In this document: positions 5,866 to 63,169 of the stretch, piece by piece
Layout: every line of letters begins with the position of its first letter
How positions within the stretch are numbered: position 1 is the stretch's first letter
From: Halorussus marinus
GTDB taxonomy: Archaea > Halobacteriota > Halobacteria > Halobacteriales > Haladaptataceae
Length of the DNA stretch: 64,000 bases
Reading direction: 5' to 3'
Assembly (NCBI RefSeq): GCF_004765795.1
Contig: NZ_SBIV01000003.1
Coordinates: forward strand, 310,001 to 374,000
The notes under the pieces: generated by a model
Told to the model about the DNA's origin: nothing
Database searches by the model: none
What the model saw: the letters and a program-made list of their open reading frames with translations, nothing else
Program-made: the position numbers and the translations under genes

Positions 5866-7842
5866 ATGGGACAAACGCTAACGGAGAAAATACTCGAAGA
5901 CCACCTCGTCGACGGTGAACTCGAAACCGGCGAGGAGATCGGAATCGAGATCGACCAGGTACTGACACAGGACACCACGGGCACCCTCGTGTGGCTCCAG
6001 TTCGAGGCGCTCGGCCTCGAAGAGGTCCAGACGGAGCTGGCGGCCCAGTACTGTGACCACCAGACCTACCAGTTCGACTTCAAGAACACCGACGACCACC
6101 GGTTCCTCCGGTCGGCGGCCGGAACCTACGGCGCGCACTTCTCGCGACCGGGCAACGGCATCTGTCACAACGTCCACAAGGAGAACTTCGCCGCGCCCGG
6201 CAAGACGATGCTCGGGTCCGACTCCCACACCCCGACGCCCGGCGGCCTCGGCGAGCTCGCGATCGGCTCGGGCGGCCTCGACGTGACCGTCGCGATGGGC
6301 GGGGGCCCCTACTACATCGAGATGCCCGAGGTCGTCAACGTCCGACTCGAAGGCGAGCTCCCCGAGTGGGCGACCGCCAAGGACGTCATCCTCGAGATGC
6401 TCCGGCGCCTCAGCGTGAAGGGCGGCGTCGGCAAGATCTTCGAGTACACGGGCCCGGGCGTCGAGAGCCTCTCGGTCCCCGAGCGGACGACCATCACCAA
6501 CATGGGCACCGAGCTCGGCGCCACCTCGTCGATCTTCCCGACCGACGAGAACACCAAAGACTACCTCGAACGGCTCGGCCGCGGCGAGGACTACGTCGAG
6601 GTTGGCCCCGACGAGGACGCCGAGTACGACGACGAGATCGTTCTCGACCTGAGCGACCTCGAACCGCTCATCGCCAAGCCGTCGATGCCCGACAACGTCG
6701 TGCCGGTCAGCGAGGTCGCGGGCACCGAGGTCGACCAGACCATCATCGGCTCGTGTACCAACGGCGCCTACGAGGACATCCTCCCGGCCGCCAAGATGCT
6801 GGAGGGCCGCGAGATCAACCGGACGACCGAGATGATCGTCGCGCCCGGTAGCAAGCAGGCCTCCGAGATGCTCGCCCGTCAGGGCTGGGTCGCCGAGATG
6901 ATGGCGGCCGGCGTCAACTTCTCCGAGGCCACCTGCGGGGCGTGTATCGGCATCGGTCACGTCCCGGCCAGCGACTCCGTCTCGCTCCGGACGTTCAACC
7001 GCAACTTCGAGGGTCGCTCGGGCATCGAGGACGACAACGTCTACCTCTGTTCGCCGGAGGTCGCCACCGCGGCGGCCATCAAGGGCGAGATCGTCGACCC
7101 GCGGGACCTCGCCGACGAACTCGGCGACCTCGAGGACCCCGGCTTCGAGCTCCCCGACGAGTATCTCGGTAGCAACGTCGACCTCATCAGCCCCGACGAG
7201 GCGCCCGACGACGAGCTCATCAAGGGCCCGAACATCGGCGACGTCCCGCTCAAAGACGAGCTCGACGCCCACCTCGAAGGCGAGGCCCTCCTGAAGATGG
7301 AGGACAACATCACGACCGACCACATCATCCCGGCGACCTCCGACATCCTGAAGTTCCGGTCGAACATCCCGAAGCTCTCGGAGTTCACCCTCTCGCGGGT
7401 CGACGACACGTTCGCCGACCGCGCGCTGGAGGCCGACGGCGGCTTCCTCGTCGCCGGCGAGAACTACGGACAGGGTAGCTCCCGCGAGCACGCGGCGCTG
7501 TGCCCGATGTACCTCGGCGTGGAGGGCGTGCTGGCCCAGAGCTTCGCCCGGATCCACAAGGCGAACCTCTTCAACTTCGGCCTCATCCCGCTCACCATCG
7601 ACGAGGAGACCTACGCGAAGATCGAGCAGGGCGACGACGTCGAGATCGTCGACGACGTGGCCGAGGCGGTCCGCTCCGGTCAGGAGGAGTTCACCGTCCG
7701 CATCAACGACGACTGGGAGGCGACGGCTCACCTCGACGCCTCCGAGCGCGAACGCGAGATTCTCGCCGACGGTGGCAAGCTCTCGCACACGAAAAAGCAG
7801 GCCGAGTCCGGCGGCGACTCGCCCGCGCCCGCGGACGACTGA
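5866..7842 (+). CDS. citB: Aconitate hydratase
   Basis: MGQTLTEKIL, GSDSHT, IGSCTN, CGACIG, NRNFEGR, ITTDHI, NYGQGSSREHA. Confidence 0.97.
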   Translation: MGQTLTEKILEDHLVDGELETGEEIGIEIDQVLTQDTTGTLVWLQFEALGLEEVQTELAAQYCDHQTYQFDFKNTDDHRFLRSAAGTYGAHFSRPGNGICHNVHKENFAAPGKTMLGSDSHTPTPGGLGELAIGSGGLDVTVAMGGGPYYIEMPEVVNVRLEGELPEWATAKDVILEMLRRLSVKGGVGKIFEYTGPGVESLSVPERTTITNMGTELGATSSIFPTDENTKDYLERLGRGEDYVEVGPDEDAEYDDEIVLDLSDLEPLIAKPSMPDNVVPVSEVAGTEVDQTIIGSCTNGAYEDILPAAKMLEGREINRTTEMIVAPGSKQASEMLARQGWVAEMMAAGVNFSEATCGACIGIGHVPASDSVSLRTFNRNFEGRSGIEDDNVYLCSPEVATAAAIKGEIVDPRDLADELGDLEDPGFELPDEYLGSNVDLISPDEAPDDELIKGPNIGDVPLKDELDAHLEGEALLKMEDNITTDHIIPATSDILKFRSNIPKLSEFTLSRVDDTFADRALEADGGFLVAGENYGQGSSREHAALCPMYLGVEGVLAQSFARIHKANLFNFGLIPLTIDEETYAKIEQGDDVEIVDDVAEAVRSGQEEFTVRINDDWEATAHLDASEREREILADGGKLSHTKKQAESGGDSPAPADD

Positions 7843-59365: not shown

Positions 59366-60088
59366 ATGCCCCGCGCCGTCGCCATCAACGTCGGAGCCAA
59401 CACGAACGCGCCCGGGAGACGCGGGCCCATCTACCCCGACGGCTCGTTCGAGTTCGTCCCGATCCCCGAGTCCGAACCCGTCCGCGAGTCGGCTTCGGTG
59501 CCGACCTACGCCGATCTGGATCTCGACGCCGACGTCCCCGAAGGTGCCCTCGACGAGCCGGTCCACCTCGACCCGGAGTTCGCCGAGTACCCCGAGTGTG
59601 AGGCCTACACCTACGGCGACCCCCACGGCGTGAAGGCCCGGCCGCTGTCGGAGCTGTCGGCCGGCGACTACGTCTTCTTCTACGCCACTCTGACCGCACG
59701 GGGCGACCCCGACCGCGGGTGGATCGCGCCCGACTGGGGGGCGTACCTCGTCGGGCAGTTCCGGCTGGCTCGGGACCCCGTTTCGGGCGAGGCGTACGCC
59801 GACCTGCCGGCCGACGACCGGGCGGCGTTCGCGACCAACGCCCACTGCAAGCGCGCCGAGTTCGACGCCGCGGTGTTGCTGGCCGGCGAACAGGCGGCGT
59901 CGGGCCTCTACGAGACGGCGGTCCCGCTGAGCTCGGCGCGAGCCGGCGCCGAGGCGAATCGGATCGTGACCGAACTGTCGAGCGACTCCGGGAAGGGGCC
60001 GTGGTGGCGCCGCCCGATGCGGTTCGGACCCGCCGAGACCGCCGACGTGCTGGCGCTGATCGAGGACGGCTACGAGCCTCCGGCGTGA
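59366..60088 (+). CDS. Nmad3-like putative nucleotide-modification-associated protein
   Basis: GPIYPDGSFEFVPIPE, HLDPEF, TYGD, GDYVFFY, NAH. Confidence 0.75.
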   Translation: MPRAVAINVGANTNAPGRRGPIYPDGSFEFVPIPESEPVRESASVPTYADLDLDADVPEGALDEPVHLDPEFAEYPECEAYTYGDPHGVKARPLSELSAGDYVFFYATLTARGDPDRGWIAPDWGAYLVGQFRLARDPVSGEAYADLPADDRAAFATNAHCKRAEFDAAVLLAGEQAASGLYETAVPLSSARAGAEANRIVTELSSDSGKGPWWRRPMRFGPAETADVLALIEDGYEPPA

Positions 60089-60209: not shown

Positions 60210-60282
60210 TGGGCCGGCCGGGAATCGAACCCGATGCCAGACCTCACTTCGTTCGGTCTGGCATCGGGTTCGATCTCTGGCC
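60210..60282. repeat. tRNA-3'-end-derived long hairpin
   Basis: 60210-60233 matches 60310-60333 at 22/24 nt; perfect 20-bp inverted repeat 60224-60243 / 60255-60274. Confidence 0.8.
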
Positions 60283-60309
60283 TGCTCGTTCGCTCGCACG
60301 CTCGCTCAC

Positions 60310-60366
60310 TGCGCCGGCCGGGAATTGAACCCGGGCTATGAGCTTGGGAAGCTCATGTCCTACCAC
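60310..60366 (-). tRNA. tRNA-Gly(CCC) 3' fragment (57 nt), probable att site; not an intact tRNA
   Basis: Minus strand GTGGTAGGAC-ATGAG-CTTCCCAAG-CTCAT-AGC-CCGGGTTCAATTCCCGG-CCGGCGCA: intact anticodon and T arms, but no 5' D-stem strand. Confidence 0.88.
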
Positions 60367-60617
60367 CAATCGGCCTGCGCCGATTGTACTGTTTTCGGCG
60401 TCTTCTTGCTGTTTTCTACGTTCCGTACTTAGATTGAATGAGGTGTACTCCTATAAATCCCCGGTCTATTAGCTACTGGCTTATTCAAATTCAATGAGGG
60501 ACCTACTAACTCAGGCAGGAAGGGGAAATCAAAAAGTATGCTCGATAAACAATGGTTTTTCGTATATCACTAATCTAAACGATAATTCAATTGAGATGGC
60601 GGCGACTCCGTTAGTCC

Positions 60618-61262
60618 TTAGACGAGGATTCCAATTATGCCAAGAACAACTACAAGGATGAACCAAAAAATGGCTAAGCCGGCTGCAATTAGATAGCCCT
60701 TTTCAAGTGGACCGTCTGCTTTCCGCCATCTTCTTACAGCAATATTATCGCTTCTATCGGTGTTCTGGTTACTCTGTACTTTTCCAGTATCAGATGGCCC
60801 TTGTGACTTTGCCTCGACTTCCACATTCGGTTCTTCCTTTATTTCATATCCTTCACTGACACAACGTGATTTGAACCGTTCTATTGCTACTTCAACATTA
60901 TCTGTATGAACGGGGAGGACCAGTGTAGTGGTTTCTCCAGTTTCTAAATCAACCACCTCACTGCTGGCTCGCAAAACGGTATCACTTTTTCTACCGGATG
61001 CACTGTCACTAAATCCTGTATTGTAACCCATTACACCTCCGATGAGAACAAGTAGGATTCCAAATCCAATGGTTGGTGCTTTTGTAGGATTCGAGGTAGT
61101 GACTTTCGTGGTTGATTCTATCCCTGAACAGTGTCCATCACCCGGAATATCTCGTTCACCCGATACACATCCTTCTACAGTGCTTGTCTGAGTTGAAGGC
61201 ATAGCAATCCCGGCAAGAACGACTAACAATCCAATAAGGACGACGACTGATGTGCCTTTCAT
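60618..61262 (-). CDS. Hypothetical membrane protein (three hydrophobic segments)
   Basis: 214-aa ORF in AT-rich DNA; TATA-like TATATA about 30 nt upstream. Confidence 0.75.
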   Translation of the reverse strand: MKGTSVVVLIGLLVVLAGIAMPSTQTSTVEGCVSGERDIPGDGHCSGIESTTKVTTSNPTKAPTIGFGILLVLIGGVMGYNTGFSDSASGRKSDTVLRASSEVVDLETGETTTLVLPVHTDNVEVAIERFKSRCVSEGYEIKEEPNVEVEAKSQGPSDTGKVQSNQNTDRSDNIAVRRWRKADGPLEKGYLIAAGLAIFWFILVVVLGIIGILV

Positions 61263-61367
61263 ATCTTATCATTTCCGAAGATAGTACATATACTATATAT
61301 TACTTTCCTACTGATGGTAGTTGGATGCCAGAGTCCGGCAGAGGGAGTTTGACGCTATGCCTGAAAA

Positions 61368-62256
61368 CAGGCTGGAAGGGGGACGCAGAGTAGTCCTGAG
61401 CAAGGTTCACTGATACGAACTGGAAGGAAGTGAGACCAGTTGTTCCGCCTTTAATTTGATGCAGAACTGCTGTGGCCTCTCGCTTTCCTACCTAAGTTGA
61501 GAACTGGGGCTTGATTTACAGTTATAGAGAACGGGCTACCAGTGTCCTTGGCTCAGGCGGGAAGGCATCCCATCAAGGATAATTGGACATTTGTAAAGTT
61601 TTGTGGGTCTGTGGTACTCTCTGCCCCCTTTCGTACCCTTCTAACTCAGAGCTTCATATGGAGTATAACAGGGCCAAGAGCTATTTTGTAGGACTCTGAC
61701 CTACCACGTCTTCAATAACACTCCTTCCAGCCTGTCCCAATGTACTCCGTACCAGTAGTAAACCTGTATCAGTAGTATCCCTAAGAACTACTGTTAACAC
61801 TCCTTCCAGCCTGTTACAGTAGTCCCCTGTTATATTAGTAACTGTATTAGTAGTATCAGTGCCCTTGTACCAGTGCCCCTTTCCAGAAGGATTTTGCGCT
61901 CACTTGGAAATTTGAGCGAAAGTCCTCCCCCACAAATCCATTTTAAGGCCTCTGACGGGCCGTCAAATCCATTTATTTTCTCTCCAAGTGTCTTCCGTCT
62001 TCTTCGAGAAAAGAATCGGTTAGAACGGCACTCAGGGCCGTATGGATAATACAAGTTTGATATAGAAATAATTCTCATAGGAATAGGGTTGGTATCTGAT
62101 GAGGACAAAGGAATTTTACAAATGTCCAATTCTGGTCCTCGTGGGGTTGGAACATCAGAGCCATCCCCCGGGGTGTGATATAAACGTAACCCGGCGAGAT
62201 GAGATAACGAAATTTGGCTATAGAAGGGGGCGAAGTGCCTCCGCCTTCCCGCCTGA
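61368..62256. repeat. Repeat-dense non-coding region (12-bp motif family, nested inverted repeats, about 79-bp tandem unit)
   Basis: CCTTCCNGCCTG five times here (plus once at 60512); 17-bp IR 61581/62115; 14-bp IR 61553/62243; 20-bp DR 61716/61795. Confidence 0.85.
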
Positions 62257-62273
62257 CTACGAGCTACTACTGT

Positions 62274-62948
62274 CTAAGCTCCTTCTGAGTTCAATAAGTA
62301 ATCTGGATAAAGGTCAGAAGCGAGATTGATGAGATTGTATTCAAGGGATTCAAGGTTCGTCTTAAAGTCATAGAAGGGGCCAGTATCGTCAACACACCAT
62401 GCCTTAGTCCAGAAATAGACTGGTTCGCGTAATCGCCTCGTTCCAGACACAAAGAGTTCGTCAGCCCACTTCTGGTACTTTCCTTTTGGTCCTTTGTCTC
62501 GACTAACGCTATCGTCCTTGTGATGGCTCAGCACTGCGGCACTGAGTTCACCAATATGATATGCATATCCGTCACCCCAACGAGCAAGCTTCGTATTGTT
62601 AGTGCGGATATTTTCGAGATTAGCACTCAAGGTCTGCCCGTCTCGGCCATATTTCCCTGCTTTTCCGAGGTAGCGAGGCACAATACATTCTCCATCAAGA
62701 GTGTACATTAGATAGATAAGTCCCTCATATGTATCGTCAGTATCTTTCCAGTCTTGTACGACTTTCCATCCTTCCGTTCGCAGTAACTCTTCCATTTGGC
62801 GACTTCGGCGAAGAATAAGGCGGTTATCTCGCCCATACCGTTTTGTCTTTACTTCTCTTTCTTCTTTGGTCTCGAAAAGAGGGACTGGTTGTTCATTCTC
62901 TACATTTTCTGCTAACCATTGGTCCCAGACTTCACGCTTTGTCGGCAT
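62274..62948 (-). CDS. Hypothetical protein, GIY-YIG nuclease-like
   Basis: GLIYLMY-x10-YLGKA, downstream ARW and C-terminal LESLEYNLI. Confidence 0.7.
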   Translation of the reverse strand: MPTKREVWDQWLAENVENEQPVPLFETKEEREVKTKRYGRDNRLILRRSRQMEELLRTEGWKVVQDWKDTDDTYEGLIYLMYTLDGECIVPRYLGKAGKYGRDGQTLSANLENIRTNNTKLARWGDGYAYHIGELSAAVLSHHKDDSVSRDKGPKGKYQKWADELFVSGTRRLREPVYFWTKAWCVDDTGPFYDFKTNLESLEYNLINLASDLYPDYLLNSEGA

Positions 62949-63169
62949 TGATAGTCAACAGTACCCTGAAAGAAAAGTTAGTCATATGTACTTTACCTTT
63001 CCCCCTTTTAGCCTGAATGAGAACTACTACAGTTGGGATAAAGGATTCGTCTTCGATTTTCCTCATCCCACACATATAATTAAACAATAATTATAACAAT
63101 TGAAGAAGTACATGGCTGTATAATCGAATTTCATTAAACCTATGTTAGAGCTTTGCAACAGTGATTCTT

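Follow-up and report, generated by a model that had tools for sequence, protein, structure and literature searches.

The ~1-kb non-coding locus described in this study appears to mimic the terminus of a helper-virus genome, which would make the integrated element that contains it a minimal satellite of an archaeal virus of the head-tailed kind, an interpretation to which we assign a probability of about 0.6. The 12-mer that recurs in the locus would in this case be a putative helper-specific site for packaging or end processing, and the element would probably hitch-hike on an HF2-like virus rather than copy itself. The helper is predicted to be of the HF2 type, belonging to the Hafunaviridae or their kin, and the Rep-less element, which was integrated at tRNA-Gly by its own integrase as evident from its sequence, would present a copy of the cis-acting signals found at the end of the helper genome. 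Among these signals, a segment termed block B would correspond to the border of the terminal repeat, the place where viral concatemers are cut, and the 12-mer to an oriented site predicted to be bound by a helper protein, which would most likely belong to the machinery of the terminase or of end processing. When a matching helper infects the host, the element would be excised and amplified and, once cut at block B, be packaged together with its defence cargo. An earlier sequence-only reading of the window, the stretch of 64,000 nucleotides that was analysed, had interpreted the 12-mers as polarised binding sites for an initiator, partition or relaxase protein centred on an origin-like locus. 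From this proposal, we retain the element-specific polarised sites, the conserved cis-acting locus and the need for a protein provided in trans, but the genes that would encode such proteins are lacking in the element, and the conserved sequence resembles the end of a hafunavirus genome rather than an origin.

The integrated element and its oriented 12-mer

The element comprises 5512 bp and is inserted at tRNA-Gly(CCC) between two copies of a ~50-bp direct repeat, the second of which is located beyond the window at the window-equivalent position 65830-65880 (Table 1). Its tyrosine integrase shares 51% identity with the integrases of HSTV-2 and HRTV-7 over 97% of its length, contains the tetrad R..YxxR..Y, has Glu at site I, and by pairwise identities belongs with the integrases of the HSTV-2 group; an HSTV2-like integrase family is named in PMC8371274. 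Integrase and att repeat are both intact and the element contains no capsid genes. Within the cargo, the GIY-YIG-like gene likely plays a role in defence. The sequence-only reading had expected a Rep, primase, ParB or HTH gene in the remaining part of the island, but none is encoded in the complete 5.5-kb element, nor is a relaxase or an alpA-type regulator, and any protein binding to the 12-mer, except for the integrase, must act in trans. A description of the locus as a MITE was rejected, since no target duplication was seen at its 20-bp inverted repeat. Searches for structured RNA with Rfam returned the tRNA alone, and neither a consensus fold nor a conserved RNA fold of blocks A and B was found; the DNA fold of the whole region (z=-2.4) reflects the inverted motif copies. 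Just outside the att repeat, a second partial copy of the tRNA end, which forms a 31-bp inverted repeat (60210-60285), is possibly the scar of an earlier insertion, and the host-like DNA adjoining the insertion site harbours a gene with an Nmad3 domain (59366-60088, + strand), which is also found beside the related locus L082.

Table 1. Features of the element and its insertion site, in window coordinates or their equivalents beyond the window.
Feature	Position	Strand	Remark
att direct repeat, copy of the 3' part of tRNA-Gly(CCC)	60318..60368	-	left element boundary
att-proximal arm	60395..60503	.	conserved (E=4e-4) in L082, the locus with the most similar integrase, which lacks the 12-mer
Motif copy CAGGCAGGAAGG	60512..60523	+	exact match; G-rich end rightward
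Cargo ORF, 214 aa	60618..61262	-	two hydrophobic stretches, no family
Stretch around copy 61368	61355..61401	+	75% match to HF2 left non-coding nt 1576-1624; weak, E=0.022
Motif copy CAGGCTGGAAGG	61368..61379	+	exact match
Motif copy CAGGCGGGAAGG	61554..61565	+	-591 from block B; L192 counterpart -571
20-bp inverted repeat, left arm	61581..61600	+	same pair, ~530 bp apart, in L192
Motif copy	61723..61734	-	-422 from block B; sister-type site of HF2 at ~-417
Motif copy	61802..61813	-	-343 from block B; within 79-bp tandem duplication
Block A, conserved non-coding	61908..62058	+	
20-bp inverted repeat, right arm	62112..62131	-	inside 20/21 match to L192 just before its block B
Block B, putative divergent copy of hafunavirus terminal-repeat border	62145..62225	+	first box GTTGGAACAT at 62146
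Predicted cut GT^AA	after 62187		within block B
Motif copy	62244..62255	-	+99 from block B; opens 34-bp direct repeat
Cargo ORF, 224 aa	62274..62948	-	GIY-YIG-like nuclease
Degenerate motif copy	63004..63015	-	2 mismatches
Cargo ORF, 434 aa	63161..64000, on to window-equivalent 64465	+	no family
HSTV2-like integrase	window-equivalent 64527-65648	-	holds seventh motif copy at 65413
Intact tRNA-Gly(CCC)	window-equivalent 65822-65892		beyond window

The six exact copies of the 12-mer in the window are found at the positions and on the strands originally reported, all of them outside the four accepted open reading frames, and their clustering is indeed far beyond chance, with six matches compared to 0.01 expected in the window and none of 100 shuffles reaching this number. 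Similarly, when the element was simulated 40 times with a third-order Markov model, no gapped 11-mer attained four copies. A seventh exact copy (contig C3:375413 of the genome, + strand) is contained in the integrase gene. As claimed, only the central base varies, with eleven positions being constant in the seven copies amid unrelated flanks, and the length of the site amounts to 13 bases, since an A or T adjoins the CAG end in all seven and in the copy at 63004. The copy at 61723 and its counterpart in the integrase gene are identical in 19 of 20 bases (61723-61742 and C3:375413-375432), which may point to antisense pairing, to a site of greater length or to a copying event. Not every detail of the sequence-only reading was preserved: the partial copies at 63004 and at 61415-61427 (three mismatches, noted as 61420) were recovered, but the one at 61879 exceeds three mismatches, and the island described as AT-rich has a low G+C content for its host (~45% vs ~69%) but is not AT-rich in absolute terms. 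Within the element, the CCTTCC core follows the described polarity wherever it occurs (11 of 11). Because the 79-bp tandem duplication and the direct repeat of 34 bp make some of these occurrences duplicates of each other, with two pairs being local duplications, the polarity flip is less significant than the cluster.

Rather than being equally frequent throughout the genome, the 12-mer is concentrated in the element, which holds seven of the eight exact copies in 3.76 Mb of a genome that is haloarchaeal in its gene content, with one residing elsewhere. In the same genome, a separate provirus-like region (C3:417780-439317) encodes a 1255-aa primase-helicase-like protein together with terminase- and portal-like genes and lacks the 12-mer, and ORB-like arrays, each with its own box, are located beside three cdc6 genes (C7:25652-27608, C7:51073-53600 and C18:2006-2218). 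A genome-wide or lineage-wide motif could be dismissed, since counts in other haloarchaea are at background level, with at most four copies per genome in 400 other genomes of the class (147 matches being known without their place) and at most five scattered copies per genome in 34 genomes of the family. The cluster is absent from every virus and all other genomes searched. Taken literally, it is also absent from homologous elements, as none of 145 other loci of the same integrase family, a set that includes some duplicates and some loci without second att, contains two copies at one mismatch or less, but the sisters described below keep the layout with another motif. No close relative was identified by blastn of the non-coding DNA against the 34 family genomes, plasmids and phages, and blastn of blocks A and B against plasmids gave nothing convincing. 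In IMG/VR, scans for motif pairs retrieved three unrelated tandem repeats and otherwise nothing, and scans for single boxes and sister pairs yielded 62 and 108 loci with no block match at E<0.01; integrase scans provided three, three and zero loci, none of them with the 12-mer. When 55 att-bounded elements were compared at a cut-off of log10 E = -3, 21 of them proved to be enriched in a motif specific to themselves, three of which were set aside as tandem arrays or duplication, and the enrichment is strongest in the present element.

Sister elements and the ends of hafunavirus genomes

Sister elements in several genera have the polar motif GCATCGAGG in common; five hosts together contain 19 strict copies of it, of which 15 are located inside the elements. 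Both this motif and the 12-mer match GC-N4-AGG, their equivalence in orientation being assigned by equating the G-rich ends, and we propose that the two differ because the helper differs. The sister motif tracks neither the winged-helix domain of Rep nor a single integrase clade, as the integrases of its elements are 48-62% identical between clades in pairwise comparisons, and a co-variation of Rep winged helix and sister motif was not supported. Relative to block B, motif copies of the present element are located at -591 (rightward) and at -422, -343 and +99 (leftward), and those of L192 at -571 (rightward) and at -367, -286 and +139 (leftward). L192 further displays a 20/21 match to the present element, the inverted-repeat partner ~530 bp upstream and the same first box. 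In nine of ten elements with block B, the first motif copy points rightward and the last leftward, with the tenth having no intergenic copy, and the orientation flips between one and five times per element. The convergence of the motif is general among sisters, whereas the single flip emphasized in the sequence-only reading is not. An over-represented motif is present in 9 of 17 elements with block A or B compared to 8 of 37 without (p=0.03, with related elements being non-independent). Block A recurs in eight sisters, and its profile, built without the present element, detects it as the sole match in the genome with E=1.8e-10; it has no match in the viral DNA searched. The block-A elements L161, L183, L184, L134 and L158 share an operon of small genes that belong to no Pfam or PHROG family. 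The single-sequence fold of a 271-aa sister protein has a pLDDT of 37.5, too low to be of use.

The relationship to viruses is most apparent in block B, which is carried by L064, L192, L136, L140, L171, L058, L056, L124, L147 and L194. A block-B profile of ten sister loci, with the present element excluded, recognizes the border of the repeat in VOLN27B (E=1.7e-11) and in HF2 (2.7e-11) in a search covering ~100 kb of DNA from three viruses, repeat borders included, and the single match of the block-B profile in the 93 kb of HF2 and HSTV-2 DNA is the extreme end of the HF2 genome. In HF2, VOLN27B and HSTV-2, a distance of 39-40 bases separates the first box from the GT^AA at which the genome or its terminal repeat ends. 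The HF2 records annotate this border site as 'putative nick site in genome replication', and PMC7230728 refers to concatemers and to a nick sequence located where the repeat borders. When block B of L136 was compared by blastn to 50,697 phage records, the best six matches were hafunavirus records (nt 257-325, E=0.1), and the best 15 of 18 matches consisted of these six and nine Microbacterium phages at E=2. A GCATCGAGG-type site in HF2 (436-455), which is positioned ~-417 from B and faces away from it, as do the 12-mers at -422 and -343 in the present element, matches L140 in 22 of 23 bases, and in HF2 and VOLN27B copies of this motif flank the gene before TerS on both sides. Beyond the cut, L064 matches HF2 in 32 of 34 bases, and L192 matches the region upstream of the viral TerS in 32 of 33. 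The element L037 encodes a TerS homologue (7097-7807, - strand) with 38% identity to gene 2 of VOLN27B, and a CxxC gene and a methyltransferase are also common to sisters and these viruses; the GT at the cut position is altered in 2 of 13 sisters. At the level of sequence, these comparisons establish that sisters mimic or have captured hafunavirus ends, and we infer that the respective sequence is used in packaging. Islands bearing such a border are the clearest candidate satellites of cultured viruses. The TerS gene of L037, a 14.8-kb tRNA-Gly element, is located ~800 bp downstream of block A. No fewer than 13 islands integrated at tRNA genes of haloarchaea carry the hafunavirus border, many of them with restriction-modification genes as cargo, and a variant of the HSTV-2 type is carried by L113, L182, L175 and L189.

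The correspondence of the present element to a viral end is less close. Its first box occurs five times in the genome and is followed by the second box, GT-RRS, only at block B, in a test whose spacing range was chosen knowing this copy; the distance from the first box to GT^AA is 42 bases compared to 39-40 in the viruses. With the sister-only profile, its block B ranks first in the genome but with E=3.4, it is missed at E<=10 by a profile combining viruses and sisters, and its comparison to phages by blastn revealed no halovirus. A homologue of the hafunavirus TerS was not found in this genome assembly. A block B of similar type, with 41 bases, is contained in L045, a small Rep-less element of 5.6 kb, which suggests a second helper class. 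The non-coding DNA of L045 (4130-6760 in integrase orientation) contains many AGCCAA words.

Alternative interpretations of the repeated motif

As an alternative to a mimicked virus end, the motif copies could constitute the iteron or ORB-like array of an origin that has lost its initiator gene or is served by one on another element, which we consider unlikely. Apart from a repeat of the tRNA type and a scattered word rich in GC, the other clusters of this genome in which at least four 11-mers are dispersed, and not in tandem, within low-GC windows are located beside or ahead of cdc6 genes, and the relatives of the element encode Cdc6, primase-helicase or rolling-circle Reps, some of them flanked by a motif of their own. 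Moreover, the terminal repeat of HF2 is linked to replication and concatemer processing in PMC7230728, and the origin and the satellite interpretations can overlap because hafunavirus terminal repeats are tied to replication. However, no Rep remnant was detected in the locus by blastx against proteins of related elements. The sister motif is common to elements whose Rep winged-helix domains are 10-16% identical or which lack such a Rep, but it is absent from L179, whose Rep is 42-43% identical to those of two elements with the motif. Finally, the 12-mer differs from the boxes flanking the cdc6 genes of its own genome, which is in line with the original statement that it does not match ORB. It is still less probable that the copies mark the boundaries of exchangeable gene cassettes, as sites or scars of recombination. 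Although the motif-bearing 34-bp direct repeat (62240-62273 and 63000-63033, 74% identity) flanks the GIY-YIG gene and abuts its stop codon, and direct motif copies flank the 214-aa gene as they do restriction-modification genes in sisters, homologues of all three cargo genes elsewhere have no copy of the 12-mer, in contrast to what an integron-like cassette site would show. The 12-mer is also not palindromic, and the sister motif is found at viral ends.

There is in our view a similarly slim chance that the element is the decayed relic of a satellite or provirus that can no longer be mobilised, with some of its motif copies being neutral duplications. The intact integrase and att repeat and the eleven positions that remain constant in seven copies with unrelated flanks argue against such decay, even though block B is divergent, the tandem duplication and the 34-bp repeat explain some motif copies, and a close relative is absent from the collections searched. 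That the 12-mers serve the integrase of the element, be it as arm-type sites or in regulation, is very improbable. One copy is located 145 bp from the att repeat and another in the integrase gene, the latter with its extended identity to the copy at 61723, but the att arms are formed by a different inverted pair, which is kept in L082. Since this locus, with a 76% identical integrase, the same tRNA and common att arms, does not contain the 12-mer, the 12-mer is not an arm site. The sister motif moreover spans the divergent integrase clades described above, and no integrase-conserved clusters corresponding to Lambda-type arm sites were found to flank the att core.

Implications and relation to known systems

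Extending the satellite interpretation from the present element to its relatives, we regard it as an even bet that widespread tRNA-integrated defence islands of haloarchaea are hafunavirus satellites that hijack packaging, copying the long-terminal-repeat border together with an oriented site for a helper protein. The present element would be a minimal member of this family for a not-yet-isolated helper, whose end motif would be predicted by the 12-mer. If true, this would explain the spread of Rep-less haloarchaeal defence islands encoding restriction-modification or GIY-YIG proteins and offer testable pairs with cultured viruses, such as an HF2-type virus with elements of the L064 or L192 type. 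It would also define the long-terminal-repeat processing signals of HF2-like viruses, so far annotated by a putative nick site alone, with the island family revealing the cut signal that is conserved and the accessory sites that are used when hafunavirus ends are processed. According to a 2025 preprint (10.1101/2025.02.15.638363), only two archaeal satellites were described before, both of spindle-shaped viruses, to which it adds more such elements. In the open-access literature searched, we found neither such end mimicry nor any satellite of a head-tailed virus of archaea described.

As portrayed in this preprint (10.1101/2025.02.15.638363), pSSVx, pSSVi and SRCEs/PL6 are parasites of spindle-shaped viruses and, like the present element, small and thought to exploit the morphogenesis machinery of a helper. 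They encode a Rep plus a capsid protein or ATPase, whereas the present element has neither and points to head-tailed viruses. With SNJ2-type integrative elements, as characterized in PMC5861418, it shares the integration at tRNA genes of haloarchaea, but its integrase lacks their R..HxxR..Y tetrad and the Gly/Ala at site I, and Orf2 and Orf3 are absent. The haloarchaeal origins adjacent to orc/cdc6 with ORB and G-string, as presented in PMC3528665, resemble the locus in their dispersed oriented boxes with a purine-rich end and in their occurrence in mobile DNA, but the locus has no adjacent cdc6 gene and its sequence differs from the cdc6 boxes of its own genome. The GCCCA interruptions of HRPV-3, as described in PMC3384331, are a different motif in a different virus type. 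With the Hafunaviridae (HF1, HF2, VOLN27B and HSTV-2, as covered in PMC7230728), the element shares a first box of the form GTT[AG]G[AC]ACA followed by GT^AA ~40 bases on, an oriented motif ~420 bp from the end, which in the element is a predicted one, and a related integrase. In contrast to these viruses, the present element has no virion or polymerase genes, its spacing is 42, a second repeat border was not identified, and its motif is CAGGCNGGAAGG instead of GCATCGAGG.

Copying of the packaging signal of a helper is familiar from bacterial phage satellites, namely cos-type PICIs, P4-like satellites and minimalist PICMIs. As in these systems, the present element is a small integrase island at a tRNA gene that carries defence-like cargo but no capsid genes, and it would have a cis-acting signal in common with a tailed candidate helper virus, with some of its sisters carrying TerS. 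Strictly speaking, it falls outside the PICIs and PICMIs because it lacks alpA and a primase or Rep of its own, and it further differs from the bacterial satellites in its archaeal host and in its signal, which would be the border of a long terminal direct repeat rather than a cos or pac site.
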